Below are positions 1 through 57,120 of a stretch of DNA of 64,000 bases, piece by piece. The DNA comes from Pristiophorus japonicus (taxonomy: Eukaryota): the NCBI RefSeq assembly GCF_044704955.1, contig NC_091985.1, forward strand, positions 204,290,001 through 204,354,000, in the 5' to 3' direction. Each line of letters starts with the position of its first letter. The first letter of the stretch is position 1. The translations under genes and the position numbers were made by a program. A model generated the notes under the pieces. It saw only the letters and a list, made by a program, of their open reading frames with translations. It was not told the origin of the DNA and did no database searches.

Positions 1-512
1 AACGATCTTTAATTGGGTGATTAATAACAATCTTCAGCCTGGTAGCTCCAGCTATCCCAGGCTAGGCAAATGTGGGGGGTGGGGGGGGTTCCAATTGTGG
101 GGGGGGCCTAGTTGTAAGCACGGCCCCCACGCACACTACCACACACACACACACACCCCCCGCGATGTTCCGGCCCTCAGTGGTCTTCTTTCCTCCCCCC
201 ACCGAAACAACAAAGTCTTTTTGGGAAATGCACCCACACCCACCTGTAGAATGTAGAGTCTCCCTCCTTCCACACTGGATGTTGTTGTGGTTTTTCCCCC
301 TCTCTCCAACTCTTTGCAGAATGATAAAGTTGTAAAAGTTTTCTGTTCTCTTCCTCTCCCTCTGGATAAAAGTTTGAAGGTGAAGCCCCTTCCTTCCTTC
401 TATTCCTGGGCTGGTCTCAGGGCTCTCCAGGCAGGAGCTCAAGTTGCTAGCTGCTTCCCTCACTGCTCACAGCTCCAACTGAGCAGGACACGCCTCCACA
501 GCTCTCCAATTG
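1..512 (-). mobile_element. 5' UTR end of a second long Tx1-clade copy (continues off the left edge)
   Basis: Aligns with 7194-7719 (5' UTR of the intact copy) with scattered substitutions/indels; ends at the same CAATTG|GTCCTTGTG junction. Confidence 0.93.
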
Positions 513-612
513 GTCCTTGTGCATGAAACTCTTTTAGGAGTCTACCTGCAAAACATAAACAACATTAAACTGTGCCACCCGACCTGGGTGACACAGCAGA
601 CATTTTCAAGGC

Positions 613-663
<51 letters not shown>

Positions 664-761
664 GGGCGCTAAAATCAAATTTTTCCAGTGCCCCCTATAA
701 AAGGAGAGGGGGACACTAAAAACACCGGCAATTAAAACAAGTTAAACTTTAAAACGTAAAA

Positions 762-3700
762 TCAAATTAAAATTTGGTTGCCGGGCGTGATGATGCACTC
801 CAGTCCCTCCGGTGCCCACCTCTCGCGGAAGGCCGCGAGCGTACCGGTGGACACCGCGTGCTCCATCTCCAAGGACACCCTGGACCGGATGTAAGAGCGG
901 AAGAGAGGCAGGCAGTCAGGTTGAACGACCCCCTCGACCGCCCGCTGCCTGGACCGGCTGATGGCACCCTTGGCCGTGCCCAGGAGCAGTCCTACGAGGA
1001 GGCCTTCGGACCTACCCGCTCCCCTCCGCACAGGGTGCCCAAAGATCAGGAGAGTGGGACTGAAGTGCAGCCAGAATTTCAGGAGCAGCCCCTTCAAATA
1101 ATAAAACAGGGGCTGCAACCTCGTGCATTCCATAAAAACATGGAACACGGACTCCTCCAGACCGCAGAAATTGCAGGCGGCCTGGGAGTCCGTGAACCGG
1201 CTTAAAAATGTGTTGCACGGCACTGCTCCGTGCACCACCCTCCAGGCCAAGTCCCCGATGAATAGTGGGAGGACCCCTGCGTAGAGGGCCCTCCATCGGG
1301 GACCCCCGCCTCCTCCGGACGGCAAGATGGTACGCCATGGCGTGTCCGGACGGCCGGCGAGGATGGCAAAGTTGAGGGTGTGCAGGAGCAGCCCGTACAG
1401 GAAACCCCTCCGCGCGGAACTGAAAGGCACGGAGGGGATTTCCCCGAGGCGGCTCAAGTTGTGAGGCGCCGGCCCCCGAGGGAGGTTCCGGGGTTTGGCG
1501 CCGATGAGGAATTCCGTCCGGACGGGGGTCAGTTCGGACGGGATCTCCCCACGTGCTTGAGCCTCCTCGATACACCTAACGGAGTCAGGGCCCAGAGCTG
1601 TTTTTAGCGACTCGATGGCATCGGCCGCGCGGCGGACGTTGGCAGAATTTAGGCGCCGCGCCAGCGTGACTGGCGCCATCCAGCCCGCTCCTCCGCCATC
1701 GAGCAGGTCCCTGACCCTGGTCACCTCACCAGCCACAGCCCTCTCTTCCGACCGCCACATGAAGCCTCGGCCGTGGAGGTACGGATTCCCGAGCAGCGGT
1801 TCCTGCAGGACGGCCGCCACTCCAGCCGGCGGAGAGCTGCGCTTGGTGGAGACTTTGTTCCAGACCCTGATGAGTTCCCTGTAAAAGACAGGCAGCTCCC
1901 GGAGGGCGGTCCTGGCACCCCCCAAGTTCACAAACAGGAGCTGCGTGTCATAATTGAGGTCGAGCTGCTGGCGGAAGAAATACCTCGCCAGAGCACACCA
2001 CCTAGGAGGGGGCTCGACGTAAAGGTATCTCTGCAGGGTCTGAAGACGGAAAGTCGCGAGCTGGGCGCTGACGCACACCAACGACTGACCGCCCTCCTCA
2101 AGCGGGAGACTCAAGACCGCGGCAGAGACCCAGTGCTTCCTGTTGTTCCAGAAGAAGTCCACCAGCTTCTTCTGTATCTTGGCGACAAACGCAGGGGGAG
2201 GGGTCAAAGTGACCAGCCGGTACCACAGCATTGCGGCCACCAGCTGGTTTATGACTAGCGCTCGACCCCTGTAGGACAGCACTCGGAGCAGTCCTGTCCA
2301 GCGCCCTAGGCGAGCGGCGACCTTGGCCTCCAGCTCCTGCCAGTTCGCCGGCCAGGCTTCCTCGTCGGGGCTAAGGTAGACTCCCAGATAGAGGAGATGG
2401 GTCGTGCTCCAGGCAAAAGGCCTGAGCTCCTCCGGCAGGGAGTCCACCCGCCACTGACCCACCAGGAGTCCGGAACATTTCTCCCAGTTGATCCTGGCGG
2501 AGGACGCGGCCGAGTAAATCTCCTGGCACTCACGCATCCTCCGCAGGTCAGCGGGATCCTCTACCGCGAGGAGCACGTCATCGGCGTAAGCCGAGAGGAC
2601 GACCTCCACGCCCGGCCCTTGCAGAGCCAGTCCCGTCAACCTCGTCCGCAAGAGGCGCAGGAAAGGCTCCACGCAAACGGCGTATAACTGGCCGGACATG
2701 GGGCATCCCTGGCGTACCCCTCTCCTAAAGCGAAGGGGCGCCGTCAAGGACCCGTTAACCTTAATCAGACACTCCGCGGCGGCGTACAAAAGTCGGATCC
2801 GGGCGACGAAATGCGTCCCGAACCCGAAAGCGCGCAGAGTTCCGAGCAGATAGTCGTGATCCACCCTGTCGAACGCCTTCTCTTGGTCGAGGGATAGGAA
2901 GGCGACCGACAGACCAGCCTCCTGGGAGCAATGGATGAGGTCCCGGACCAGATGGATGTTGTCGTGGATTGTCCGGCCCGGGACCGTGTATGACTGGTCG
3001 GGGTGGATCATGTGGTCCAGCACGGCACCAAGGCGAGCAGACATCGCCCTGGCGAAGATTTTGTAGTCCGTGCTGAGGAGGGAGACCGGGCGCCAGTTCT
3101 TAAGGAGGCGGAGATCGCCCTTCTTAGGCAGCAGGACGATGACTGCCCTGCGCCAAGAGAGGGGCATCTCCCCGGTCGCCAGACATTCCCCCAGGACCCG
3201 CGCGTAGTCGCCCCCCAGGACGTCCCAGAACGCCCTGTGGAACTCCACGGTCAGCCCGTCCAGCCCCGGGGATTTTCCCCTCGAGAGCCGGGCGAGGGCA
3301 CCGGTCAGCTCCGCCAGGCTTAGCGGAGCTTCCAGATTTTCGGCGCCCTCCGGGCCGACCTTCGGCAGGTCCTCCCACAAAACTCTACGCGCTTCCTCGC
3401 TGGACGGATCCGGAGAGAACAGAGCCCCGTAATATTCACGGACCCTGTTGTTGACGCCCTCCGGATCCGAGACGAGAGAGCCGTCGTCGGCCAGCAGCGT
3501 CAAGAGCTGCTTACGGACACTCTGCCTTTTTTCCAGCGAGTAGAAGAAGGGGGAGCCGCGGTCCAGATCCCGCAGGAACCGGATCCGCGACCTCACGAAC
3601 GCGCCTCGGGACCCGACGAGCTGCAGGTCCTTCAGCGCGGCCTTCTTCGCTTCGTACACCGTCCGCAGGGCCGGGTCCTGGACGACTTGACCGAGACGGG

Positions 3701-4661
3701 CTTCCAGGTCGAGCACCTCTTTTTCTAGGCGCCCGACTCTGGCCGCCCGCCTCTTGGTCGACCCCCTCGCGTACTCTTGACAGAAGACGCGGACGTGAGC
3801 CTTGCCCACGTCCCACCATAGCCTCAAGGAGGGGAAGCCCCCCTGCTTCCTTCTCCAGTCGGACCAGAATCGACGGAACGAGTCCTGGAACCGCACGTCC
3901 TCCAGCAGCCGGTTGTTAAAGTGCCAGTACGCGGACCCCGTCCTCGCGCGGAGCGAAGCGAGCTCCGCCCACACCAGGTGGTGGTCCGAGCACGGCACCG
4001 GCCGCATGGAGGCCGCCGGGACGCAGGAAACGTACGCCCGAGACACGTAAAGGCGGTCGACTCTAGACCATCCAACTCCAGGCCTCACCCAAGTAAAGGC
4101 GCTGGAGTCGGGGTGGAGATTTCGCCAGACGTCCACCAAGTCGAAGGACCCGACCAGGTCCCTCAACTTCTCCATCGCCGTCATGCACTGCGGGGCACCG
4201 GAGCGGTCCCTCGCCTCGAGGGTGCAGTTAAAATCCCCCCCGAGGACAATGCAGTCGCCGACGTCGACGGAGCCAAGAAGAGCGGACACCTCTTCAAAGA
4301 AGCGCGTCTGCTGCGGGCCGGGATGAGGGGCGTACACGTTCACGAGATGGAGCGGCACGTCCCCCAGGCGAACCGTTACGTGCAGCAAGCGGCCTGGCAC
4401 GGGCTCCTCGACCCCCAAGATCTCCGGCTGAAAATGCGGGCCCAGCAAGATGGCCACCCCACTTGAAATGGCGGTGAGGTGGCTCATGCGGACCTCTCCT
4501 TGCCATTCCAGGAGCCACGTGGCTTCGTCTCCCGGAACGGTGTGGGTTTCTTGCAGGAAGCACACCGCATATTTCCCCTCCCGCAGGAGCGAAAAATTGT
4601 CAAATCTACGGCGTGCCCCTCTGCCGCCGTTGATGTTGAGGCTGGCTATGGTTATCTTCAT
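762..4661 (-). CDS. Tx1-type ORF2: AP endonuclease, reverse transcriptase, C-terminal CCHC zinc finger
   Basis: APE motifs SLNING, LQETH, GGDFN, SRVDRLY, SDHH; RT motifs PGLDG, DQEKAFD, QGCPMS, YADD; CNFCGLEESVFHVFMEC. First ATG at 4661 (ORF track starts at an upstream TTG). Confidence 0.96.
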   Translation of the reverse strand: MKITIASLNINGGRGARRRFDNFSLLREGKYAVCFLQETHTVPGDEATWLLEWQGEVRMSHLTAISSGVAILLGPHFQPEILGVEEPVPGRLLHVTVRLGDVPLHLVNVYAPHPGPQQTRFFEEVSALLGSVDVGDCIVLGGDFNCTLEARDRSGAPQCMTAMEKLRDLVGSFDLVDVWRNLHPDSSAFTWVRPGVGWSRVDRLYVSRAYVSCVPAASMRPVPCSDHHLVWAELASLRARTGSAYWHFNNRLLEDVRFQDSFRRFWSDWRRKQGGFPSLRLWWDVGKAHVRVFCQEYARGSTKRRAARVGRLEKEVLDLEARLGQVVQDPALRTVYEAKKAALKDLQLVGSRGAFVRSRIRFLRDLDRGSPFFYSLEKRQSVRKQLLTLLADDGSLVSDPEGVNNRVREYYGALFSPDPSSEEARRVLWEDLPKVGPEGAENLEAPLSLAELTGALARLSRGKSPGLDGLTVEFHRAFWDVLGGDYARVLGECLATGEMPLSWRRAVIVLLPKKGDLRLLKNWRPVSLLSTDYKIFARAMSARLGAVLDHMIHPDQSYTVPGRTIHDNIHLVRDLIHCSQEAGLSVAFLSLDQEKAFDRVDHDYLLGTLRAFGFGTHFVARIRLLYAAAECLIKVNGSLTAPLRFRRGVRQGCPMSGQLYAVCVEPFLRLLRTRLTGLALQGPGVEVVLSAYADDVLLAVEDPADLRRMRECQEIYSAASSARINWEKCSGLLVGQWRVDSLPEELRPFAWSTTHLLYLGVYLSPDEEAWPANWQELEAKVAARLGRWTGLLRVLSYRGRALVINQLVAAMLWYRLVTLTPPPAFVAKIQKKLVDFFWNNRKHWVSAAVLSLPLEEGGQSLVCVSAQLATFRLQTLQRYLYVEPPPRWCALARYFFRQQLDLNYDTQLLFVNLGGARTALRELPVFYRELIRVWNKVSTKRSSPPAGVAAVLQEPLLGNPYLHGRGFMWRSEERAVAGEVTRVRDLLDGGGAGWMAPVTLARRLNSANVRRAADAIESLKTALGPDSVRCIEEAQARGEIPSELTPVRTEFLIGAKPRNLPRGPAPHNLSRLGEIPSVPFSSARRGFLYGLLLHTLNFAILAGRPDTPWRTILPSGGGGGPRWRALYAGVLPLFIGDLAWRVVHGAVPCNTFLSRFTDSQAACNFCGLEESVFHVFMECTRLQPLFYYLKGLLLKFWLHFSPTLLIFGHPVRRGAGRSEGLLVGLLLGTAKGAISRSRQRAVEGVVQPDCLPLFRSYIRSRVSLEMEHAVSTGTLAAFRERWAPEGLECIITPGNQILI

Positions 4662-4687
4662 GGCAAAAGCATAGTGCAACCTCTACC

Positions 4688-6787
4688 TTAACCTATTGTG
4701 GGGGAGGGAGCGAAGTCTTTTGTTGAACTCCGCTCCCTCCGCAGCCCAGCGAGGAGTCCCTCGAGCTCGCGCAGCTCAAGGTGCTGCTCCTTTGTCAAGG
4801 GCCCGCCCGCGGCCAAGGTTTTAACGGCGGCGCGGACGGACCCCTTGATCAGCTCCGGCTCGGACCATTTTTCCAGGGCCAGTCGGGCTTGGTCGCGGCG
4901 ACCCCGGCTCTGGGCCAAAAAGTCCCGGAGTTCCTTTGCAGGAACGAGGAGGGCCTCAGCGGCGGCCGCGAGCAGATCCACCGCCTCCCTGGCGGTGGTC
5001 TCTAGGTCTTCACCCGCGTCCCCCACCGAGTCCCCGTCCTCCTCCGGGAGGTGGCCGCCAGCAGCCGGCCCATCGACCGCACAAGGTACGGCAAATGAAC
5101 CGGCCGCTCCAACCGGCCCTGGCACTGCCCCGATCCCACCCCCAGGATCGTCGGCAGAGGAGTCCCCACTGGGCTCTTTTAAAAATGGTGCCGGGTCGGG
5201 AAATGACAGCGGAAGGGGTTCCCCCTCCGCCCCAGGAACCGGAGAACAAGGAGAGACCCGGCCATAGGAAATCCCCAGGCCCTCCAAGTGCTCCAGCTCC
5301 AAAGTAAGGGGCGAGGGTGGGTGTTCCTCCCCCTCCCCGCTGCCACCCCCCGGCCCAGCATCTACAGTATCATTAAAATCAATTGTTTCATTCTCTGCCG
5401 GGTCGAGCAAATCCCGGGGTAAGTTGTGTATTGGCTGGGCGGGCTCAGGTTCGGCCTTTTCGGCCCCGCCCGCCTCGGTCCCCGGGACGCTCGACCCGGC
5501 GGCTACGCATTCTTCCACTGGCCCCACGCCCCCCACGACAGGCAGATCTTCCACGCCCTCCCCAGGAGGCAGCGGCTGGGCAGCCTCGACTGCCTCACCC
5601 TCCCCGGGGAAAGACTCCTCGCGCCTGCAGCGCAATTTGGGGGCGCTGGTGGGGGACGCGGGACACGCGGCGGGCACCGCCTCCTCCGCGGAGGGATGTT
5701 GTTCCCCCTCCGCCTCATTGGGGCGGTGCCTCTTTTTGTTCCTGGGGGCGCGCGGAGTCAGGGAGACCTCCATGTCTGCCGAGGCCTCCCGCTCCGCCCC
5801 CCCCTTTTCCTTTTCTTGCCCGCGCCTGGGCCCCTCTGTGGTGTTATTCAAGGGCCCGGGCACGGGCTCGGGGCACCCCGCGCTCGCCGGTGACTGGGTT
5901 GGGCTGAGCGCGGTGGTCAGACTTTCCGGCGCACCGAGGGGACCCGCCTCTAGATGTTTTTCCTTCTTCCGCGCCTTCTTTCCGCTCGGACGCTCTCCCT
6001 CCCCCCTGCCGGAGGCCCTGAAAACAAAGGCCTCCGACGATGCCCGCGCACCCATGGCTCCCGGCACGCGGACGCAACTAGGGGGAGGGGTGGCGGCGGC
6101 GCCAGCTATGGCCGCCTTCGGTGGTTTGGCGGCCTTGGAGGCGGGGCAGTTCTTGCGAACGTGCCCCACCTCCCTGCAGGCATGGCACCGCACGCCGTCC
6201 GACGTCCAGAAGACGCGGTAGGCAGTCCCCTCGTGCACCACATTAAAGTGCCCTTCTGTCAGGTCCTCCCGCGCCAGCCGGACAAAGAGCTGGCGGCGGA
6301 AGGAGAACACGTGGCGCAGGCTGTTCTCCCTGAGGCCGAGCGGTATGGGGTTGATCCCCGACCTTACCTCCCCCAGTTGGTGTAGGTGAGGGAGGAGGAG
6401 CTCAGCGGAAACAAAGGGCGGGACGTTTGACACGATGACCCTCTGCGCGGTGGCCTCGAGAGGGTCCACCGGCAGGAACGTCCCGCCCACCGTGAGCCCC
6501 TTTTCAAGGGCCAGGGACACCGCCCGCTCCGACCCCAGGAAGAACACGGCCTTCCCAGACATCTTGGAGGCTGCGACAATGGCCGAGGGGCCGACTACCC
6601 CAGCCATCGCCCGCACGCACTCCTCGATGGTCATTGTGGGGTGAGTGTAGCTCTTGACCCCGTGTTTTTTCGTAATTAACCTAAATGGTGGCAGGGCAGC
6701 GGGTGGCGCAGGAGGGGCCGTGGAAGCGGTTGCCACCTGCGCATACGTCCTTGCTGGCCCTGCCACCGGCGTGGATGGGGTCGCCAT
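4688..6787 (-). CDS. Tx1-type ORF1 nucleic-acid-binding protein
   Basis: RRM-like segment RVIVSNVPPFVSAELL, gag-like knuckle CHACREVGHVRKNC, long Pro/Glu/Gly-rich low-complexity region; immediately upstream of ORF2. Confidence 0.92.
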   Translation of the reverse strand: MATPSTPVAGPARTYAQVATASTAPPAPPAALPPFRLITKKHGVKSYTHPTMTIEECVRAMAGVVGPSAIVAASKMSGKAVFFLGSERAVSLALEKGLTVGGTFLPVDPLEATAQRVIVSNVPPFVSAELLLPHLHQLGEVRSGINPIPLGLRENSLRHVFSFRRQLFVRLAREDLTEGHFNVVHEGTAYRVFWTSDGVRCHACREVGHVRKNCPASKAAKPPKAAIAGAAATPPPSCVRVPGAMGARASSEAFVFRASGRGEGERPSGKKARKKEKHLEAGPLGAPESLTTALSPTQSPASAGCPEPVPGPLNNTTEGPRRGQEKEKGGAEREASADMEVSLTPRAPRNKKRHRPNEAEGEQHPSAEEAVPAACPASPTSAPKLRCRREESFPGEGEAVEAAQPLPPGEGVEDLPVVGGVGPVEECVAAGSSVPGTEAGGAEKAEPEPAQPIHNLPRDLLDPAENETIDFNDTVDAGPGGGSGEGEEHPPSPLTLELEHLEGLGISYGRVSPCSPVPGAEGEPLPLSFPDPAPFLKEPSGDSSADDPGGGIGAVPGPVGAAGSFAVPCAVDGPAAGGHLPEEDGDSVGDAGEDLETTAREAVDLLAAAAEALLVPAKELRDFLAQSRGRRDQARLALEKWSEPELIKGSVRAAVKTLAAGGPLTKEQHLELRELEGLLAGLRRERSSTKDFAPSPTIG

Positions 6788-7734
6788 CACGGGGTCCCTT
6801 TAAGGGCTACACCCACCCCAAAGTCACAGGCCTTAATGGTCTTAATTGGCCTCTTGTATAATGACTGAGCAGAGGAGCCCTTAATGAGGCACACCTCTCC
6901 CCTAGTTGGCAATTGGGGAGGGGCCTTGCTCCCTCTGCTCAGTTGTCTTAAATTGTTTGTTTTTTAAATTAAATTTGGAAGGAAGGGCTCTCAGAGAGAG
7001 AGGGGAGAAACAGAGTAACAGAGAAAAGAGAGAGGGGGGTGGGAAGGGGGGGGGGCTGCGAGGGCAGGTCTCTCGTCGCAGCTGTGGGTGGGTGCACTCC
7101 CCAGATGGCAAAACACAAAAGTCTTTGAGGTGGTCTTCAGGTGGGGGGAGAAGATGTCTTCACCTGGGGTAGCTGGAGCCACCAGGCACTCCTAACGATC
7201 TTTAATTGGATGATTAAGAAAAACAACAATCTTCAGCCTGGTAGCTCCAGCTATCCCAGGCTAGGCAAATGTGGGGGGGGTGGGGGGGGTGGGGGGGGTT
7301 CCAATTGTGGGGGGGGCCTAGTTGTAAGCAAGGCCCCCACACACACTACCACACACACACACACCCCCCGCGATGTTCCGGCCCTCAGTGGTCTTCTTTC
7401 CTCCCCCCACCGATACAACAAAGTCTGTTTGGGGAAATGCACCCACACCCACCTGTAGAATGTAGAGTCTCCCTCCTTCCACACTGGATATTGTTGGTCT
7501 TTTCCCCCTCTCTCCAACTCCTTGCAGAAATGATAAAGTTGTTTAAAGTTTTCTGCTTTTTCCTCTCCCTCTGGATAAAAGTTGTGTTGAAGCCCCTTCC
7601 TTCCTTCTCCTCCTGGGCTGGTCTCAGGGCTCTCCAGGCAGGAGCTCAAGTTGCTAGCAGCTCCTCTCACTGCTCACAGCTCCAACTGAGCAGGACACGC
7701 CTCTACTGCTGCACAATTGGTCCTTGTGCTTGAA

Positions 7735-8150
7735 ACTCTTTTAGGAGTCTACCTGCAAAACATAAACAACATTAAACTGTGCCACCCGACCTGGGTGACA
7801 CAGCAGACATTTTCAAGCCCCTTTTTTTTTTTGGTTTTTGGTTTTTTTTTTTGGGGCGCTAAAATCAAATTTTTCCAGTGCCCCCTATAAAAGGGAAGGG
7901 GACACTAAAAGCACCGGCAATTAAAACAAATTAACTTTAAAACGTAAAATCAAATTAAAATTTGGTTGCCGGGCGTGATGATGCACTCCAGTCCCTCCGG
8001 TGCCCACCTCTCGCGGAAGGCCGCGAGCGTACCGGTGGACACCGCGTGCTCCATCTCCAAGGACACCCTGGACCGGATGTAAGAGCGGAAGAGAGGCAGG
8101 CAGTCAGGTTGAACGACCCCCTCGACCGCCCGCTGCCTGGACCGGCTGAT
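7735..8150 (-). mobile_element. 5'-truncated Tx1 copy A
   Basis: Matches 528-962 (3' UTR plus end of ORF2); bounded by spacers 7720-7734 and 8151-8165. Confidence 0.95.
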
Positions 8151-8165
8151 GTCCTTGTGCTTGAA

Positions 8166-8586
8166 ACTCTTTTAGGAGTCTACCTGCAAAACATAAACAA
8201 TATTAAACTGTGCCACCCGACCTGGGTGACACAGCAGACATTTTCAAGCCCCTTTTTTTTTTTTGGTTTTTTTTTTTTTTTTTTTTGGGGCGCTAAAATC
8301 AAATTTTTCCAGTGCCCCCTATAAAAGGAGAGGGGGACACTAAAAACACCGGCAATTAAAACAAATTAAACTTTAAAACGTAAAATCAAATTAAAATTTG
8401 GTTGCCGGGCGTGATGATGCACTCCAGTCCCTCCGGTGCCCACCTCTCGCGGAAGGCCGCGAGCGTACCGGTGGACACCGCGTGCTCCATCTCCAAGGAC
8501 ACCCTGGACCGGATGTAAGAGCGGAAGAGAGGCAGGCAGTCAGGTTGAACGACCCCCTCGACCGCCCGCTGCCTGGACCGGCTGAT
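8166..8586 (-). mobile_element. 5'-truncated Tx1 copy B
   Basis: Same truncation point (GGACCGGCTGAT); spacer at 8587-8601. Confidence 0.95.
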
Positions 8587-8601
8587 GTCCTTGTGCTTGA
8601 A

Positions 8602-9049
8602 ACTCTTTTAGAGTCTACCTGTGAAAACATAAAACAATAACGGTGCCACCCAACCTGGGTGACACTCCAGACATTTACAAGGCCCTTTTTTTCCCCCCCT
8701 TTTTTTTTTTTTTTTTTTTTTGTGTTTTTCTTTTTTTGGTTTTTTTTTTGGGCACTAAAATCACAATTTTTCCCCAGTGCCCCCTATAAAAGGGAAGGGG
8801 ACACTAAAAGCACCGGCAATTAAAACAAATTAACTTTAAAACGTAAAATCAAATTAAAATTTGGTTGCCGGGCGTGATGATGCACTCCAGTCCCTCCGGT
8901 GCCCACCTCTCGCGGAAGGCCGCGAGCGTACCGGTGGACACCGCGTGCTCCATCTCCAAGGACACCCTGGACCGGATGTAAGAGCGGAAGAGAGGCAGGC
9001 AGTCAGGTTGAACGACCCCCTCGACCGCCCGCTGCCTGGACCGGCTGAT
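8602..9049 (-). mobile_element. 5'-truncated Tx1 copy C (variant 3' UTR)
   Basis: Same truncation point; 3' UTR has diagnostic variants (TTTAGAG, GACACTCCAG, TTTACAAGG); spacer at 9050-9064. Confidence 0.95.
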
Positions 9050-9064
9050 GTCCTTGTGCTTGAA

Positions 9065-9520
9065 ACTCTTTTAGAGTCTACCTGCGAAAACATAAACATT
9101 AAACTGTGCCACCCGACCTGGGTGACACTCCAGACATTTACAAGGCCCATTTTTTTTTTTCCCCCCTTTTTTGTGTTTTTTTTTTTTTTGTTTTTTCTTT
9201 TTTTTTTGTTTTTTTTTTTTGGGCACTAAAATCACAATTTTTCCCCAGTGCCCCCTATAAAAGGGAAGGGGACACTAAAAGCACCGGCAATTAAAACAAA
9301 TTAACTTTAAAACGTAAAATCAAATTAAAATTTGGTTGCCGGGCGTGATGATGCACTCCAGTCCCTCCGGTGCCCACCTCTCGCGGAAGGCCGCGAGCGT
9401 ACCGGTGGACACCGCGTGCTCCATCTCCAAGGACACCCTGGACCGGATGTAAGAGCGGAAGAGAGGCAGGCAGTCAGGTTGAACGACCCCCTCGACCGCC
9501 CGCTGCCTGGACCGGCTGAT
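9065..9520 (-). mobile_element. 5'-truncated Tx1 copy D (variant 3' UTR)
   Basis: Same truncation point; followed by spacer 9521-9535, which runs directly into CR1 sequence. Confidence 0.95.
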
Positions 9521-10235
9521 GTCCTTGTGCTTGAATGACAGAAGGATAGTTTGCAGGTGAAGCAGGCAATCAGGAAGGTGAATGGAATGCTGGCCTTCAT
9601 TGCGAGAGGGATGGAGTACAAAAGCAGGGAGGTCCTTCTGCAACTGTATAGGGTATTGGTGAGGCCGCACCTGGAGTACTGCGTGCAGTTTTGGTCGCCT
9701 TACTTAAGGAAGGATATACTGGCTTTGGAGGGGGTACAGAGATGATTCACTTGGTTGATTCCGGAGATGAGGGGGTTACCTTATGATGATAGATTGAGTA
9801 GACTGGGTCTTTACTCGTTGGAGTTCAGAAGGATGAGGGGTGATCTTATAGAAACATTCAAAATCATGAAAGGGATCGACAAGATAGAGGCAGAGAGGTT
9901 GTTTCCACTGGTCGGGGAGACTAGAACTCGGGGGCACAGCCTCAAAATACGGGGGAGCCAATTTAAAACCGAGTTGAGAAGGAATTTCTTCTCCCAGAGG
10001 GTTGTGAATCTGTGGAATTCTCTGCCCAGGGAAGCAGTTGAGGCTAGCTCATTGAATGTATTCAAGTCACAGATAGATAGATTTTTAACCAATAAGGGAA
10101 TTAAGGGTTACGGGGACCAGCCGGATAAGTGGAGCTGAGTCCATAGCCAGATCAGCCATGATCTTATTGAATGGCGGAGCAGGCTCGAGGGGCTCGATGG
10201 CCTACTCCTGTTCCTAATTCTTATGTTCTTATGTA
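9521..10235 (+). mobile_element. CR1/HER1-type LINE 3' part (host of the Tx1 array)
   Basis: Encodes [41 protein letters not shown]; ends with GGCCTACTCCTG and a TTCTTATG-type tail. Confidence 0.93.
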
Positions 10236-13354: not shown

Positions 13355-14437
13355 TCAGTCCTGGATGTGATTAACAGCAGAATCCACACCTGCAGTGTGA
13401 ACTCGCTGGTGTCTCAGTAGGTGGGACGACTGAATGAATCCCTTCCCACACTCAGAGCAGGTGAACGGCATCTCTGCAGTGTGAGTGCGTTGGTGTGCCA
13501 GCAGGTTGAATGAACGAGTGAATCTCTTCCCACACTCAGAACAGGTGAACGGCCTCTCCCCAGTGTGAGTGCGTTGGTGTGTCATCAGATCCTTTCTGCT
13601 TTTAAAGCTCTTCTCACAGTCAGGACATTTAAACGGTCTCTTATTGGTGTGAACAAGTTGGTGTTCAGTGAGCTGGGATGAACGAGTGCATGCCTTCCCA
13701 CACACAGAACAGGTAAAATGTTTCTCCCCGGTGTGAACAGGTTGGTGTGCAGTGAGCTGGCATGAACGAGCGAATTCCATACCACACATGGAACACGTGA
13801 ACGGCCTTTCCCCGGTGTGAACTCGCTGGTGTTCAGTGAGGATGGATGAACGAGCGAATCCCTTCCCACACACAGAGCAGATGAACGGCCTCTCCCCGCT
13901 GTGAACTCGCTGGTGTCTCAGCTGATGAGATGATTTAACAAACCCTTTCCCACATATGGAGCAGATGAATGGTCTCTCCCCAGTATGAACTCGCTGGTGT
14001 TCAGTGAGGCGTGAAGAACAAGTGAATTCCTTCCCACACACGGAGCAGATGAATGGTTTCTCCCCAGTGTGAACTCGCTGGTGCTCAGTGAGGTTGGATG
14101 ACTGCCTGAACCTCTTCTCGCAGTAAGAGCAACTGAACGGCCTCTCCCCAGTGTGAACTCGTTGGTGTTGATTTAGTTCACGAGAGGTTTTAAAGCTGTT
14201 CCCACAGTCAGAGCATTTAAAAGGTCTCTCATTCGTGTGAACTCGCTGGTGTGATAGAAGGTGAGCTGAACGAATGAATCCCTTCCCACACACAGGGCAG
14301 GTGAACGGCCTCTCCCCGGTGTGACGACGTCGATGAGTTTCCAGCTCAGAGGGGCAATTGAATCCCTTCCCACAATCTCCGCATTCCCATGGTTTCTCCG
14401 TGATGTGGGTGTCCTTGTGTCTCTCCAGGTTGTACAA
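13355..14437 (-). pseudogene. C2H2 zinc-finger gene with 12 fingers; open frame but probable start loss
   Basis: 12 CxxC-12-HxxxH units with TGERP linkers; the paralog's MEKPW start is ACG (TEKPW) here, with in-frame TGA stops upstream; acceptor-like TTTTACAG|G near 14620. Confidence 0.7.
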
Positions 14438-30797: not shown

Positions 30798-31556
30798 TCA
30801 CTTGTGAACTCGCTGGTGTTTCAGCAGGTTGGATGAACAAGTGAATCCCTTCCCACACTCAGAGCAGGTGAACGGTCTCTCCCCAGTGTGAGTGCGTTGG
30901 TGCATCATCAGACTACTTCTGCTTTTAAAGCTCTTCTCACAATCAGAACAGTTAAAAGGCCTCTTATTAGTGTGAACAAGTTGGTGTGTAGTGAGATGGC
31001 ATGACTGAGTGAAACCCTTCCCACACTCTGAGCAGGTGAACGGTCTCTCCCCAGTGTGAGTGTGTTGGTGCATCATCAGCTGATTTCTGCTTTTAAAGCT
31101 CTTCTCACAGTCAGAGCATTTAAAAGGCCTCTTATTGGTGTGAACAAGGAGGTGGGCAGTGAGGCTGGATGACTGAGTGAATCCTTTCCCACACACAGAG
31201 CAGGTGAATGGCCTCTCCCCGGTGTGAACTCGCTGATGTCTCAGCAAATCCATTTTGATTTTAAAGCTTTTCTCACAGTCAGAACATTTAAAAGCTCCCT
31301 TATCAGAGTGAACAAGTTTATGGCGCCTCAGTTCCCCGGAACTTTTAAAGCATTTCCCGCAGTCCAAACATTTAAAAGGTCTCTCCGCAGTGTGAACTCG
31401 CTGGTGAGCTACAAGGCTGGATGAATGAGTGAATCCCTTCCCACACACCGAGCAGGTGAACGGCCTCTCCCCAGTGTGACTGCGTCGATGAATTTCCAGC
31501 TCAGATGGGTAACCGAATCCCTTCCCACAGTCACTACATTTCCACGGTTTCTCCAT
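30798..31556 (-). CDS. C2H2 zinc-finger protein, 9 fingers
   Basis: ATG in ACCATGG context; MEKPW followed by 9 intact fingers; degenerate fingers and an acceptor (~31911) upstream. Confidence 0.85.
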
Positions 31557-32304
31557 GGTGTGGCTATCCTTGTGTCTCTCCAGGTTGGACGATCAGTTAA
31601 AGCCTCGCCCACGCACATAACACGTTTGCAGTTTCTCCCCGCTGTACATGGTGCGATTTTTTTCAGGCTGTGTAACTGGTTAAAGCTCTTTCCGCAGTCA
31701 GTGCACTGGAACACTCTCACTCGGGTGTGTGTGTCTGGTGCTTTTCCAGTCACACTGATGTTTGAAATCTTTTCCCACAGACAAACATTTCTCCTTTCCC
31801 TTTCAAAGGCCGATGATATTCAGATCCTGATGCATCGAGTGACTCTGTCAGATCTTGACACAATGTTTGGTTCGAGTTCCCCGTCTGTAAATCCTCCCCT
31901 TATAATACCCTGTGAAAGGAGTTTGCAAAACTCATCACTGTAAGGACAGGACAGAAATTCAGAACAGACAATTCTAGTTTCTATGGAACATTCTTTTCTG
32001 TCTTGTTCCCCCCAAAGCTGTAAATCCCCATCCCTCCTCCCTGAGCGGAAATCCAAACCCATCGCACAATCTCCATCATTTCTTCCTTCTCGCTATTTTC
32101 TTCCTCCCCTGAAGGTGCTGACTCTGGCTGACTTCAGTTCCACACTCAATGGTTCCCCTCCCTCTCCTCCCCTGAAGGTGCTGACTCTATCTGGGTTCAG
32201 TTCTACACTGTATTCTACGGGTATGCTGAGCACCGAGTGTGTGCCTGAAATACGTTCTGGTCAGATACAGAGTAAAGCTCCCTCTATACTGTCCCATCAA
32301 ACAT

Positions 32305-41011: not shown

Positions 41012-42940
41012 ACATAGAAACATAGAAACATAGAAAATAGGTGCAGGAGTAGGCCATTCGGCCCTTCTAGCCTGCACCGCCATTCAATGAGTTCATGGCT
41101 GAACATTCAACTTCAGTACCCCATTCCTGCTTTCTCGCCATACCCCTTGATCCCCCTAGCAGTAAGGACCTCATCTAACTCCTTTTTGAATATATTTAGT
41201 GAATTGGCCTCAACAACTTTCTGTGGTAGAGAATTCCACAGGTTCACCACTCTCTGGGTGAAGAAGTTCCTCCGCATCTCGGTCCTAAATGGCTTACCCC
41301 TTATCCTTAGACTGTGACCCCTGGTTCTGGACTTCCCCAACATTGGGAACATTCTTCCTGCATCTAACCTGTCTAACCCCGTCAGAATTTTATATGTTTC
41401 TATGAGGTCCCCTCTCATTCTTCTGAACTCCAGTGAATACAAGCCCAGTTGATCCAGTCTTTCTTGATAGGTCAGTCCCGCCATCCCGGGAATCAGTCTG
41501 GTGAACCTTCGCTGCACTCCCTCAATAGCAAGAATGTCCTTCCTCAGGTTAGGAGACCAAAACTGTACACAATACTCCAGGTGTGGCCTCACCAATGCCC
41601 TGTACAACTGTAGCAACACCTCCCTGCCCCTGTACTCAAATCCCCTTGCTATGAAGGCCAACATGCCATTTGCTTTCTTAACCGCCTGCTGCACCTGCAT
41701 GCCAACCTTCAATGACTGATGTACCATGACACCCAGGTCTCTTTGCACCTCCCCTTTTCCTAATCTGTCACCATTCAGATAATAGTCTGTCTCTCTGTTT
41801 TTACCACCAAAGTGGATAACCTCACATTTATCCACATTATACTTCATCTGCCATGCATTTTCCCACTCACCTAACCTATCCAAGTCGCTCTGCAGCCTCA
41901 CAGCATCCTCCTCGCAGCTCATACTGCCACCCAACTTAGTGTCATCCGCAAATTTGGAGATACTACATTTAATCCCCTCATCTAAATCATTAATGTACAG
42001 TGTAAACAGCTGGGGCCCCAGCACAGAACCTTGCGGTACCCCACTAGTCACTGCCTGCCATTCTGAAAAGTACCCATTTACTCCTACTCTTTGCTTCCTG
42101 TCTGACAACCAGTTCTCAATCCATGTCAGTACACTACCCCCAATCCCATGTGCTCTAACTTTGCACATCAATCTCTTGTGTGGGACCTTGTCGAACGCCT
42201 TCTGAAAGTCCAAATATACCACATCAACTGGTTCTCCCTTATCCACTCTACTGGAAACATCCTCAAAAAATTCCAGAAGATTTGTCAAGCATGATTTCCC
42301 TTTCACAAATCCATGCTGACTTGGACCTATCATGTCACCTCTTTCCAAATGCACTGCTATGACATCCTTAATAATTGATTCCATCATTTTACCCACTACC
42401 GATGTCAGGCTGACCGGTCTATAATTCCCTGTTTTCTCTCTCCCTCCTTTTTTAAAAAGTGGGGTTACATTGGCTACCCTCCACTCCATAGGAACTGATC
42501 CAGAGTCAATGGAATGTTGGAAAATGACTGTCAACGCATCCACTATTTCCAAGGCCACCTCCTTAAGTACTCTGGGATGCAGTCCATCAGGCCCTGGGGA
42601 TTTATCGGCCTTCAATCCCATCAATTTCCCCAACACAATTTCCCGGCTAATAAGGATTTCCCTCAGTTCCTCCTCCTTACTAGACCCCCCGACCCCTTTT
42701 ATAACCGGAAGGTTGTTCGTGTCCTCCTTCGTGAATACCGAACCAAAGTACTTGTTCAATTGGTCCGCCATTTCTTTGTTCCCCGTTATGACTTCCCCTG
42801 ATTCTGACTGCAGGGGACCTACATTTGTCTTTACTAACCTTTTTCTCTTTACATATCTATAGAAACTTTTGCAATCCGTCTTAATGTTCCCTGCAAGCTT
42901 CTTCTCATACTCCATTTTCCCTGCCCTAATCAAACCCTTT
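41012..42940 (-). mobile_element. Young 5'-truncated CR1/HER1 LINE with an uninterrupted 606-aa RT frame (41113-42933)
   Basis: PGPDG, YLDFQKAFDKVPH, GVPQGSVLGP, FADD; (TTTCTATG)n tail. Confidence 0.96.
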
Positions 42941-43449
42941 GAAACATCGGAGGGACGGCGGAGTAGGAGTGTTTGCTGGGACTGTGCAGGAGTTAATATC
43001 TGACAGAAACTGTCCCAGTTTAGTTGAATCAGAGTGAAACACTCGGTTACTGAGAGTAATACCGAACGGCCCTGAGCTGCAAGATTACAGGGAGTACAAC
43101 AGGCAAGCGAGGGTTAAATGTGGGACCTTGTTTCTCTCACTCTCTGACACTGTCCCGCAGTGTGGGATTAATAATGTGTCTGTATGTGGTACAATATCAG
43201 TGAGAGAGGGGACTGTATCTTCTGTCTCCCCAATGGGAACTTTCAGGATAAAACCGGACCTCACAGATCAATTGGGACAGATACCGTGTAAGTCTTTCTG
43301 TGTCTCACCGTCCTGCCTCGATCTCTCCGATCTCTCACTTAGCACTCTCCCCCATCTCTGACTCTGTTACAATCCTTTTCTCTTGTACTGTCTGTGAAGG
43401 GGGGATACTGTTATTTCGCGTGATGTGGAAACACTTGTGAGTACAACAC

Positions 43450-44062: not shown

Positions 44063-45221
44063 ATACTGTTTCTGTTTCTCTCTCTGGTGCTATACATGAC
44101 GGTGTGGCACTGTTACTGAGCGTAATATGGAAACACTGATACCAAGTGTAAGACTGATAATGTGTCTGTCTCTTTCTCTCTCTTTCGGTGGTGCTATACA
44201 TGAATGTGTGATACTATTATTGAGAGTAATATTGAGACACAGTTAGGGAGTTTAAGACTGATTCTGTGTCTGTCTCTCTGTCGCTCCCTCTGATAGCCAT
44301 CTCTGGGTGGTGAGTATGGGATGGATAGGATACCAGTTACTGTTATATGTCCCTCATTTTCGGAGGAGAGAGAGAGAGAGAGACAAAGAGAGGGTGGAGG
44401 GGCGGTGAACTCATAATTTCTATTTTCACGTTAATCAAACATATTTCTGCGTGCGAACAATGTAATAACTTAACAGCATATATGGGTTAAGCCAGCCTCT
44501 GCTGTGATTGGCTCCTGCCCCTGAATCTGGGGAACAGACACTCTGAGGAACGCCGGCCTCAGAGTGTTTAACACTTACTGAGCTAGGAAACTACAACTAA
44601 CCCCGAGAATCGGCAGCACAGGCCGAGCGGAGAGGTAACCCTGTGCTGGGAGCTGTAAATCTGGGACAGTTTGTGCTGTGAATGTGCAGATGTGAACATT
44701 GTGTGAGCGAGAGTGTGTTAAAGGGGCGGGCCGGTGAGACGAATGTCACTTTGTTTGTGTCATCGCCGGATTCCAGAGTCCCGCTTGTGTAAAATTCAAA
44801 GATTTTCCTGTCACAGGATCGCCCTGCTGCCCTGCTCAGGTCTAAAGTGGGAATTAAACGTCAAGTTTGATGTGATTTCAAATTTCAATCGAAAAACAGA
44901 GAAAATGTCCGCGATCGGGTGAGAGAGCGCGATCAGTGCAGCAATGCTGCCATTAATTCGGAGGAAGCTTTCTCGACAACAAACATCCCGGTCTTCGGGA
45001 CAGAAAGAGGCCAGTCTGGGAATCTGGAGGGCCCGGGTTGAATTGGAATCGGACAGTTAATGAGGAGAGAGAAACACAGAGAGGCTGGAGGGGCGGGGAG
45101 CTGACAGCAGGATGTCTCGCCCCGTCCGCTCGCTGCCTTTAAGTTGCTCTGTGCCGCCGCCTCCCGTTTCATTTCTGACCGAGCTCTGACTGTCAGAGAG
45201 ATTTTCCACAGAGTCGCCGAC

Positions 45222-45920
45222 ATGACTGACACTTCAGCCGCCGAAACAGCTCCTTCTGCCGCCGCCGCTCAAGCCAAGGCCCCCCGCAAGAAGAAGAAGG
45301 CAGCTCCCCGCTCCAAGCCAGCCGGCCCCACGTTGGGCGAACAGATCCTCAAGGTTGTGACCGATGGCAGCGATCGCAAGGGGATGTCTCTGGCCGCGAT
45401 AAAGAAGGCTCTGGCGGCCAAAGGCGTGGATGTGGAGAAGCGCGGGTCCCAGATCAGGTTCAGTATCAAGAGGAATGTGACAAATGGCTTCCTGGTGCAG
45501 ACCAAGGGCACGGGCGCCTCGGGCTCCTTCAAAGTCGCTAAGAAGGAAAACCAGGGGAAAGTGGGAAGGAAGGTGAATAAACCAGCAGCCAAGAACTCTC
45601 CAGCCAAGAAACCAGCAGCCAAGAAATCTCCAGCCAAGAAACCAGCAGCCAAGAAATCTCCGGCCAAGAAACCAGCAGCCAAGAAATCTCCGGCCAAGAA
45701 ACCAGCAGCCAAGAAATCTCCGGCCAAGAAAACGAGCACCAAGAAGGCGCTAACAGTAAAAAAGTCAGCGAAAGCGGCGGCTGGGAAGAAGGCGGCAGCG
45801 GCGAAGCCCAAGAGCCCCAAGAAGGCCTCGGGCGCAAAGGTGAAGGCGGCCAAAAAGGTGGGAAAACCGAGGGCCAAGGCCAAATCAACAAAACCCAAGA
45901 AACCAGCGCTCAAAAAGTAA
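45222..45920 (+). CDS. H1: Histone H1 (replication-dependent type)
   Basis: Globular domain ...SLAAIKKAL...[14 protein letters not shown] and Lys/Ala/Pro tail; H1-box AAACACA (~45072) and GC box upstream; 3' stem-loop. Confidence 0.95.
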
Positions 45921-55858: not shown

Positions 55859-57120
55859 AGCATGGATTTATGAAGGGGAAGTCATGTTTGACAAATTTGC
55901 TGGAATTCTTTGAGGATGTCACGCACAGGGTGGATAATGGGGAAGTAGTGGATGTGGTGTATTTGGACTTCCAGAACGCATTTGACAAGGTGCCACATAA
56001 AAGGTTACTGACTGCACAAGATAAAAGTTCACGGGGTTGGGGGTAATATATTAGCATGGATAGAGGATTGGCTAACAAACAGAAACCAGAGAGTGGGGAT
56101 AAATGGTTCATTCCCGGGTTGGCAATCAGTAACCAAGGGGATGCCACAGGGATCAGTGCTAGGACCCCAACTATTTATGATCTATATTAACGACTTGGAA
56201 GAAGGGACCGAGAGTAACGCAGCCAAGTTTGCTGACGATACAAAGATAGGAGGAAAAGCAATGGGTGAGGAGGACACAAATTCTGCAAAAGGACATAGAC
56301 AGGCTAAGTGAGTGAGCAAGGATTTGGCAGATGGAGTATAATATTGGAAAGTGTGAGGTCATGCTCTTTGATTTGTGCAAGTGCAAGTTATTATTTTAAT
56401 GGTGAAAGATTGCAAAGTGCTGCAGTGCAGCGGGACCTGGGGGTACTTGTGCATGAAACACAAAAGGTTAGTATGCAGGTACAGCAAGTGATCAGGAAGG
56501 CCAATGGAATCTGGCCTTTATTGCAAAGGGGATGGAGTATAAAAGCAGGGAAGTCTTGCTACAGTTGTACAGGGTATTGGTGAGGCCACACCTGGAATAC
56601 TTCATGCAGTTTTGGTTTCTATATTTACAAAAAGGATATACTTGCTTTGGAGGCAGTTCAGAGAAGTTTCACAAGGTTGATTCCAGAATGAGGGGGTTGA
56701 CTTGAGGAAAGGTAGAGTAGGTTGGGCTTCTACTCATTGGAATTCAGAAGAATGAGAGGTGATCTTATCGAAACATATAAGATTATGAGGGGGCTTAACA
56801 AGGTGGATGCAGAGAGGATGTTTCCACTGCTAGGGGAAACTAGAACTAGAGGGCTTAATCTTAGAATAAGAGGTCGCACATTTAAAACTGAGATGAGGAG
56901 AAATTTCTTCTCTGAGGATTGTGAATCTGTGGAATTCGCTGCCTCAGAGAGCTGGGACATTGAATAAAATTAAGACAGAAACAGACAGTTTCTTAATGAT
57001 AAGGGAATATGGGGCAGGGAAGTAGACCAGAGTCCATGATCGTATTAAATGGCGGAGCAGGCTCGAGGGGCCGTATGGCCTACATTTGCTCCTATTTCTT
57101 ATGTTTTTATGTTTTTATGT
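55859..57120 (+). mobile_element. CR1 RT/3' fragment (frameshifted)
   Basis: PQGSVLGPQLF, KFADDTK, QRDLGVLVHETQ, RRMRGDLIE. Confidence 0.93.

Follow-up and report, generated by a model that had tools for sequence, protein, structure and literature searches.

Introduction

Tx1L of Xenopus laevis, whose open reading frame (ORF) 2 product is listed in UniProt as 'Transposon TX1 uncharacterized 149 kDa protein', inserts into another transposon, the non-autonomous piggyBac DNA transposon Tx1D (PMC4494074, PMC1950540), and the transposon targets described for Tx1 families comprise piggyBac, Mariner, Harbinger and long terminal repeat (LTR) elements (Kojima 2015, PMC4494074). Here, a Tx1-clade long interspersed nuclear element (LINE) was analysed that stands in tandem copies at the start of a 64,000-nucleotide stretch of Pristiophorus japonicus DNA (NC_091985.1, positions 204,290,001 to 204,354,000; called the window below, with coordinates counted from its first base) and that almost certainly targets a site in ORF2 of a second LINE, CR1. 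The genome analysed measures 5.92 Gb, and the window takes in one end of the array. Like Tx1L, the element has two ORFs, the second of which encodes an apurinic/apyrimidinic endonuclease (APE) and a reverse transcriptase (RT) in 1,306 aa (1,308 aa in Tx1L); unlike Tx1L, it targets ORF2 of a LINE and not Tx1D, and the endonuclease loop concerned with target choice has 8 residues between its anchors, without the RDGH tip, against 11 with RDGH in Tx1L as given in PMC1950540.

The crocodilian families Tx1-Mar, Tx1-8_Crp, Tx1-4_AMi, Tx1-9_AMi and SINEU prefer Mariner-N4_AMi, LTR retrotransposons and Harbinger; tandem SINEU-3 copies sandwich the target duplication, and one Mariner site was entered in antisense orientation (PMC4494074). 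The sections of that paper drawn on describe no non-LTR target for them, and they are old (85–87% to consensus), whereas the element here is young (mean divergence between units 1.64%), has at least 4,048 full-length 5' ends and forms arrays of up to 42 units, a comparison made by description and not by tree. Drosophila R1 (Stage and Eickbush 2009, PMC2718515; McGurk and Barbash 2018, PMC5932611) resembles it in being APE-type and site-specific, with a 14-bp duplication between tandem copies, and in melanogaster-type R1 the RNA includes target sequence from upstream, which anneals when the 5' end is joined. R1 differs in its clade (R1), in its ribosomal DNA target and in copy number (on average 2–3 copies per unit at most, except in one amplified array), and the polar inheritance of truncation points with fresh 3' ends seen here is not described in the sections of these two papers drawn on. 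R2 RNA contains upstream target sequence that aids 5' integration by homology, and this serves below as a model for imported spacers and for an altered CR1 flank named U*; R2 itself has a restriction-like endonuclease, a single ORF and a ribozyme like that of hepatitis delta virus (HDV), unlike the present element (PMC12203849).

Tx1 families on DNA transposons or LTR elements and tandem R1 arrays were thus known before. No family targeting CR1 or any LINE was found in the literature searched, in line with the initial annotation of this DNA, which knew of none; Repbase, Dfam, most subscription papers and the supplements of PMC4494074 lay outside that search, and a prior description of a LINE target is possible. 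The element extends sequence-specific retrotransposon targets to another non-LTR retrotransposon and so makes it a parasite of a parasite. The hybrid growth of its arrays and the rewritten flank, both treated below, are the parts most likely to surprise specialists.

Target site in CR1 ORF2

The part of the array inside the window has one orientation throughout and consists of the 5' part of one unit (1–512), a full-length unit (528–7719) and four short units, followed by CR1; these features and the related empty CR1 site are as follows.

1–512, minus strand: 5' untranslated region (UTR) of a full-length unit continuing upstream of the window
513–527, plus strand: spacer (duplicated CR1 target), common form
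528–7719, minus strand: full-length Tx1-clade element, 7,192 bp, without terminal poly(A), fixed 3' end at 528
7720–7734, plus strand: spacer, T-variant
7735–8150, minus strand: 5'-truncated unit, breakpoint equivalent to 963
8151–8165, plus strand: spacer, T-variant
8166–8586, minus strand: 5'-truncated unit, breakpoint equivalent to 963
8587–8601, plus strand: spacer, T-variant
8602–9049, minus strand: 5'-truncated unit, breakpoint equivalent to 963, different 3' end type
9050–9064, plus strand: spacer, T-variant
9065–9520, minus strand: 5'-truncated unit, breakpoint equivalent to 963, another 3' end variant
9521–9535, plus strand: terminal spacer (target duplication), T-variant
9536–10235, plus strand: half of the split CR1 that lies downstream of the array (C-terminal part of ORF2 and 3' tail), 93–95% identical to empty-site copies; end coordinate approximate
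56443–56457, plus strand: homologous site, empty, in a CR1 from another family, 79–81% identical to the main target family

The initial annotation had described six motif copies bounding six units of the same orientation, with the last spacer running into CR1 ORF2. All six motifs were recovered at exactly those positions with 0 mismatches, together with a seventh at 56443 with 1 mismatch (7 matches against a chance expectation of 0.39; 0 of 100 shuffles reached 7), and the passage of the last spacer into CR1 ORF2 was borne out. The empty site offered as its counterpart at 56443 is real, with its one mismatch, but the CR1 that holds it belongs to a different family. At its far (left) end, 265,370 bases upstream of the window, the array rejoins CR1 as had been anticipated: the flank is the upstream half of the main CR1 family, and the two halves are in one reading frame across the site and 93–96% identical to empty-site copies. 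The two end spacers of the array differ by one base, so the flanks are assigned to the same CR1 family and not provably to one copy.

The duplicated target is about 14 bp long (TCCTTGTGCATGAA), its leading G being shared or variable, and the bases shared between junctions numbered 12–16 in 14 of 16 resolved insertions and 5 in the other two. Insertion is antisense to CR1, at a conserved coding motif of its ORF2 (the DLGVLVHE codons), about 700 bp from the CR1 3' end, so that most truncated CR1 copies retain the target. That most copies of the element lie at this one CR1 site, a point on which the initial annotation had let its proposal depend, was confirmed with one 3'-end pattern: 2,252 of its 3,039 genome matches have the exact 9-base target directly ahead (a match expected by chance at about 1 site in 130,000). 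Of the first 100 3' ends listed, 89 lay at the CR1 site or a duplicated spacer, 82 of them recognized by the exact motif and 7 on inspection; the 18 non-exact ends comprised those 7, at CR1 sites or arrays of variant or other-family type, and 11 off-target ends from 9 loci. In 12 of the 82 exact cases the flank was inspected and found to be upstream CR1 (5), another unit (6) or a rearranged CR1 piece (1). The element is flanked by CR1 ORF2 on both sides and not by piggyBac, Mariner, Harbinger or an LTR element, and its share of flanks in one repeat is above the 20% by which Kojima recognizes target preference. None of the flanks examined lay in U2, 5S or tRNA arrays or in microsatellites (the targets of Keno, Mutsu, Dewa, Kibi and Koshi).

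Genome-wide, 5,931 exact sites were filled (CR1-to-element junctions) and 25,597 empty, an occupancy of about 19%; these counts cover exact sites only, leave aside those of other CR1 families and include segmental duplicates, which inflate them to an unknown extent. In a spaced sample of 27 filled sites, 16 were resolved through to downstream CR1 and showed many different truncation points, while 6 of the 27 were abortive inserts of about 10–13 element bases with a full target duplication. Off-target copies have target duplications of their own, most ending in GAA, so the motif belongs to the target, and the idea that it forms part of the element was ruled out. Against strict specificity stand the off-target copies, about one-tenth of the total, and 22 array units that were added around a spacer with two mismatches; specificity is therefore a preference and not absolute.

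By disrupting its target the element can knock out CR1 ORF2, and the pool of targets is renewed by CR1's own activity; CR1 may serve the element as a safe haven. An intact APE-type enzyme with a new target of about 14 bp and a changed specificity loop offers a test case for the evolution of target specificity.

Further observations on the target site were made at single loci. Abortive insertions at L115, L119, L122, L126, L129, L136 and L094 end at the terminal hairpin of the element. Insertions at L050 and L053 occupy the homologous site of other CR1 families, so the target spans families. Odd junctions comprise two units fused without a spacer (L104), a longer left-flank duplication after an 11-base insert (L128) and insertions without a right-hand duplication (L109, L118). 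Four copies in the first 3.3 Mb of C1 (L089, L090, L092, L095), beside a 21-bp tandem repeat, are segmental duplicates (98.7–99.8% over 4.3–4.4 kb), which ruled out a CR1 subfamily spreading with a 33-bp Tx1 scar. RNA-guided targeting is retained as no more than a weak lead: the 3' UTR echoes three short target blocks, but 3'-end variants break them, the hairpin loop included. Within the window, other-family CR1 copies at 41113–43113 (minus strand) and 11603 (plus strand), one with a 666-aa open RT frame, have a differing homologous site (GTCATGGTAC...), which is empty.

Structure and classification of the element

The full-length unit of the window is divided as follows.

528–761, minus strand: 3' UTR with a terminal 4-bp hairpin (528–541), a 12-bp hairpin (569–597) and an internal A-rich tract from about 616
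762–4682, minus strand: ORF2, 1,306 aa from stop to stop, first ATG near 4661, open; APE endonuclease, RT (YADD) and C-terminal zinc motif
4688–6799, minus strand: ORF1, 703 aa from stop to stop, with a CCHC zinc knuckle
6800–7719, minus strand: 5' UTR, about 920 bp, containing an inverted repeat (7163–7260)

ORF2 matched the Pfam families Exo_endo_phos (residues 13–234) and RVT_1 (519–768), its C-terminal zinc motif being weak; the best match among solved structures was L1 ORF2p (E 5e-84), and the APE and RT catalytic motifs align with those of human L1 ORF2p. ORF2 identity was 53% to Xenopus Tx1L over residues 1–800 (49% over the whole), about 56% to turtle sequences, 61% to sturgeon and 68% to a stingray fragment. 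In a tree of the endonuclease and RT domains (FastTree, midpoint root), calculated from the query and 23 of the 120 matches listed without an L1 or CR1 outgroup, the query, sturgeon, Xenopus Tx1L and turtle sequences formed one clade with support 0.979. Members of the Tx1 clade have a separate ORF1 with a zinc knuckle. Here ORF1 gave zf-CCHC at residues 204–219, a weak match below the Pfam cut-off (E 0.0044), and had 19 relatives, from sturgeon, turtles and lamprey. An APE-then-RT ORF2, a separate ORF1 with a zinc knuckle and the grouping with Tx1L were therefore all found, and the Tx1-clade membership proposed in the initial annotation is supported by both ORF2 similarity and the tree.

A fixed 3' end, 5' truncation and target duplication are marks of target-primed reverse transcription, and all three are seen in this element. 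The two hairpins of the 3' UTR, the 12-bp and the terminal one, gave a folding z of -3.47. No ribozyme family was matched at E≤5 in 6700–8300 of the window, and a topology search for HDV-like ribozymes, run without a positive control, gave 0 matches in 4 regions. The inverted repeat of the 5' UTR has arms of about 25 bp, and its RNA-family matches were sub-threshold microRNA families.

Among the 38 full-length units of the array, ORF2 is open in 32 and ORF1 in 29. Genome-wide there are at least 10,896 3'-UTR hairpins besides the 5' ends counted above; taking each of the latter as a whole unit (4,048 × 7.2 kb), full-length copies amount to at least about 29 Mb, which bears on the growth of the 5.9-Gb genome. 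In a search of the genome with the element, all 146 matches scored, of 14,805 candidates, were 100% identical. From its sequence, the element is an autonomous, recently active Tx1-clade LINE. Two other organisms (labelled E and G) yielded 14,978 and 5,590 related contigs, mostly 80–95% alike, and among the matches listed for them none bridged CR1 and the 3' end of the element; organisms B and D gave near-identical matches at low depth, which may represent traces of the same DNA.

Organization of the array

The window covers the end of an array of 42 units over about 275 kb, 38 of them full-length and 4 short, with 37 further 3' ends upstream. Mean divergence between units is that given above; no two neighbours are identical, the minimum among the 38 full-length units being 0.25%. 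Full-length units form blocks of 22 and 14, each with private spacers and 5' haplotypes, and arrays with 7.2-kb spacing recur at many places on C1. An assembly artefact or a collapsed repeat is unlikely because all 38 units differ and similar arrays recur on C1. Upstream units (L031–L039, L054–L063) combine several 5' UTR and ORF1 haplotypes in mosaic fashion, with an ORF2 that hardly varies (about 0.5–0.7% against about 3% in ORF1), and their last 300 columns are the most variable (about 6%).

Polar sharing between neighbours and the growth of arrays

The four short units of the window are cut at the identical base and have differing 3' ends, and four cuts at the same base are not what independent truncation would give. 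In the 38 full-length units, the ratio of neighbour to all-pair divergence was 0.22, 0.32 and 0.41 (permutation P=0.0005) across the first 250 columns, and 1.01 and 0.94 (P=0.61, 0.22) across the last 550, the profile passing from 0.22 at the 5' end through 0.69 at 1–2 kb to about 1 at the 3' end. With units from other loci as controls, a neighbour was the closest relative of 21 of 27 units at the 5' end and of 6 of 27 at the 3' end. An exact breakpoint was common to units in 10 of 11 arrays with at least two resolved truncated units, off-target arrays included; of 28 pairs with a common breakpoint, 23 were identical over the 54 bases at the 5' junction, and 17 differed by at least 3 within the last 80 bases. 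At L188–L192 an extra G stands at the junction in all five units, and L022 is a repeated dimer in which the inner 85-bp unit occurs identically 5 times and the 3' end of the outer unit is variable. Spacers may also be imported: the spacer of one full-length unit at C1:31.9 Mb differs from the local form, and CR1-type spacers occur in an off-target array at C1:122.07 Mb. Units with the odd breakpoints 791 and 825 and at C1:43.46 Mb are clearly de novo. The initial annotation had taken the units for repeated independent insertions; their 3' ends and bodies do look fresh, but their 5' junctions are common to neighbours.

Crossing-over predicts symmetric sharing between neighbours and independent insertion predicts none; from the 5'-polar sharing observed, we infer that arrays probably grow by hybrid copies, in which a fresh, RNA-templated 3' part is joined to a 5' junction inherited from a resident copy. 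If integration follows standard target-primed reverse transcription, the APE domain would nick the CR1 sense strand after ...CATGAA, reverse transcription would begin at the structured 3' end of the element RNA, and a second nick in the other strand, 14 bases away, would give the target duplication. That the duplicated spacer is re-used to build head-to-tail arrays is visible in the sequence itself. When a spacer next to a resident copy is nicked, the nascent cDNA would often leave its RNA and pair with that copy, most likely the upstream neighbour or its sister chromatid, copy its 5' end and spacer and then rejoin at the spacer. The weakest step is that some RNAs probably have a 5' end that includes the spacer and part of the upstream CR1, which would supply foreign spacers and may explain U*. 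The pattern at L022 favours the upstream neighbour or sister chromatid as the partner copied.

Several points weigh against hybrid growth. The choice of neighbour depends on one locus, L022, and each mechanistic step is read from end products. Several short arrays were chosen for closely spaced matches, which makes 10 of 11 a biased rate; 11 of the 28 same-breakpoint pairs (4 of them inner units of L022) have fewer than 3 differences at the 3' end, as plain duplication predicts. Neighbours are also slightly more alike than chance in mid-element (ratio 0.88–0.93; P=0.0065–0.025, columns 4000–6800), so that some long tracts or unequal exchange occur.

The last two points, the higher-order dimer at L022 and one empty U* site that resembles a contracted array would suit growth through slippage or unequal crossing-over between units (unequal exchange is the accepted explanation of R1 arrays, PMC5932611), with 3' ends replaced later by abortive retrotransposition that converts the last few hundred to few thousand bases and adds no unit. 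Such growth is nevertheless unlikely: a crossover unit would match one neighbour at its 5' end and the other at its 3' end, giving symmetric sharing in place of the 5'-polar pattern (21 of 27 against 6 of 27), and since no two of the 38 units that are neighbours are identical, nearly every 3' end would have to have been replaced. Switching of the RT from the incoming RNA to a read-through transcript of the local array, which would supply the 5' junction and spacer, would lead to polar hybrids of the same kind; the existence of read-through RNAs is suggested by foreign spacers and by a piece of two units within an off-target array, and the end-to-end fusion without spacer at L104 is as expected from a template jump. 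It is judged improbable because arrays made up only of truncated units of 85–650 bp (L015, L022, C1:122 Mb) show the same pattern without a promoter-bearing 5' UTR and would need host-driven transcription. That every unit is an ordinary independent insertion into a regenerated spacer, as proposed for tandem Drosophila R1 copies with their 14-bp duplication (ascribed to sequential insertion in PMC2718515, in the part used), could account for blocks of spacer variants and for the clearly de novo units, but is contradicted as the sole mechanism and hardly credible, since it can give neither the same truncation base in 4/4, 4/4 and 7/8 units of one array while other loci break elsewhere, nor common junction bases such as the extra G of L188–L192.

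Hybrid growth, if correct, provides a route from a dispersed LINE to a tandem array without reliance on unequal exchange. The second half of LINE integration, 5' joining, is poorly understood; thousands of young junctions allow it to be read in genome sequence, where they point to a homologous resident copy being used often.

The altered CR1 flank U*

Directly after the terminal spacer, the CR1 sequence is altered.

9536–9580, plus strand: altered CR1 flank U*, in which TGACAGAAGGATAG replaces TCCCAAAAAGTTAG, with further changes at +25, +32 and +44

Of the first 11 places after the last spacer of the window, 5 differ from the CR1 family, and a stop codon is created in CR1 ORF2. The U* form occurs 326 times in the genome, once at an empty site, and all 26 sampled sites were filled. 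Beyond about 45 bases, U* copies share no private CR1 markers; at L209, about 60 bases of the U* tract lie on a CR1 from another family (76% identical). Among the outer changes, those at +32 occurred only together with those at +25 (6 of 6; Fisher P=0.024), a nesting that resembles tracts of variable length, and at C1:43.46 Mb the spacer on the U* side differs from the local spacer. From these patterns, U* looks like a donor tract laid onto the target.

Whether the donor would be an RNA leader, as in melanogaster-type R1, is about an even question. Imported spacers and the 14 of 26 U* sites that adjoin full-length units fit such a leader; the 12 of 26 that adjoin truncated units do not fit easily, nor do three of the four fully traced U* loci, which are without a full-length unit. 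These cases count against an RNA leader, as does the finding that the full-length units beside U* have different 5' haplotypes. No leader ends were seen as breaks in the U* flank, the break at L226 being a second CR1 insertion.

Such variation of adjoining units in 5' ends and truncations is what would be seen if U* were a property of the site, a pre-existing CR1 variant so good a target that nearly all its copies have been filled, and not a product of insertion. This origin is quite unlikely, given that U* copies lack common private markers past about 45 bases and have a stop codon in CR1 ORF2, that the same tract lies on the 76%-identical CR1 at L209, that the +25 and +32 changes are nested and that a foreign spacer is present at C1:43.46 Mb. 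Returning to U* as a laid-on tract, the fullest picture, of a LINE on a LINE that has filled about one-fifth of the sites of one CR1 family and forms satellite-like, hybrid-grown arrays, with a sub-population whose CR1-derived homology arm rewrites 11–60 flank bases at hundreds of loci and so marks future large arrays, is put forward tentatively. If true, the homology arm would mean that an APE-type retrotransposon naturally edits the flank of its target across the genome.

Two related candidates were tried and rejected. Conversion of the left flank was not supported (of the 100 GAGCTG-variant sites listed, 19 were filled, and the empty ones lay in the target family in 42 cases and in another family in 39), and an RNA hairpin of U* and spacer was not significant (z -0.25). 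The sole empty U* site, L214 (C1009), may be a scar from array loss. The U* loci L202 and L203, which are separated by 2 Mb on C1 and point in opposite directions, are identical over the first 120 flank bases and have extra private changes.

Other features of the window

Two C2H2 zinc-finger arrays were recognized by eye on the minus strand, at 13355–14437 and 30798–31592, with open frames of 360 and 264 aa, and a linker histone H1 gene lies on the plus strand at 45105–45920 (Pfam Linker_histone, E 1e-17).

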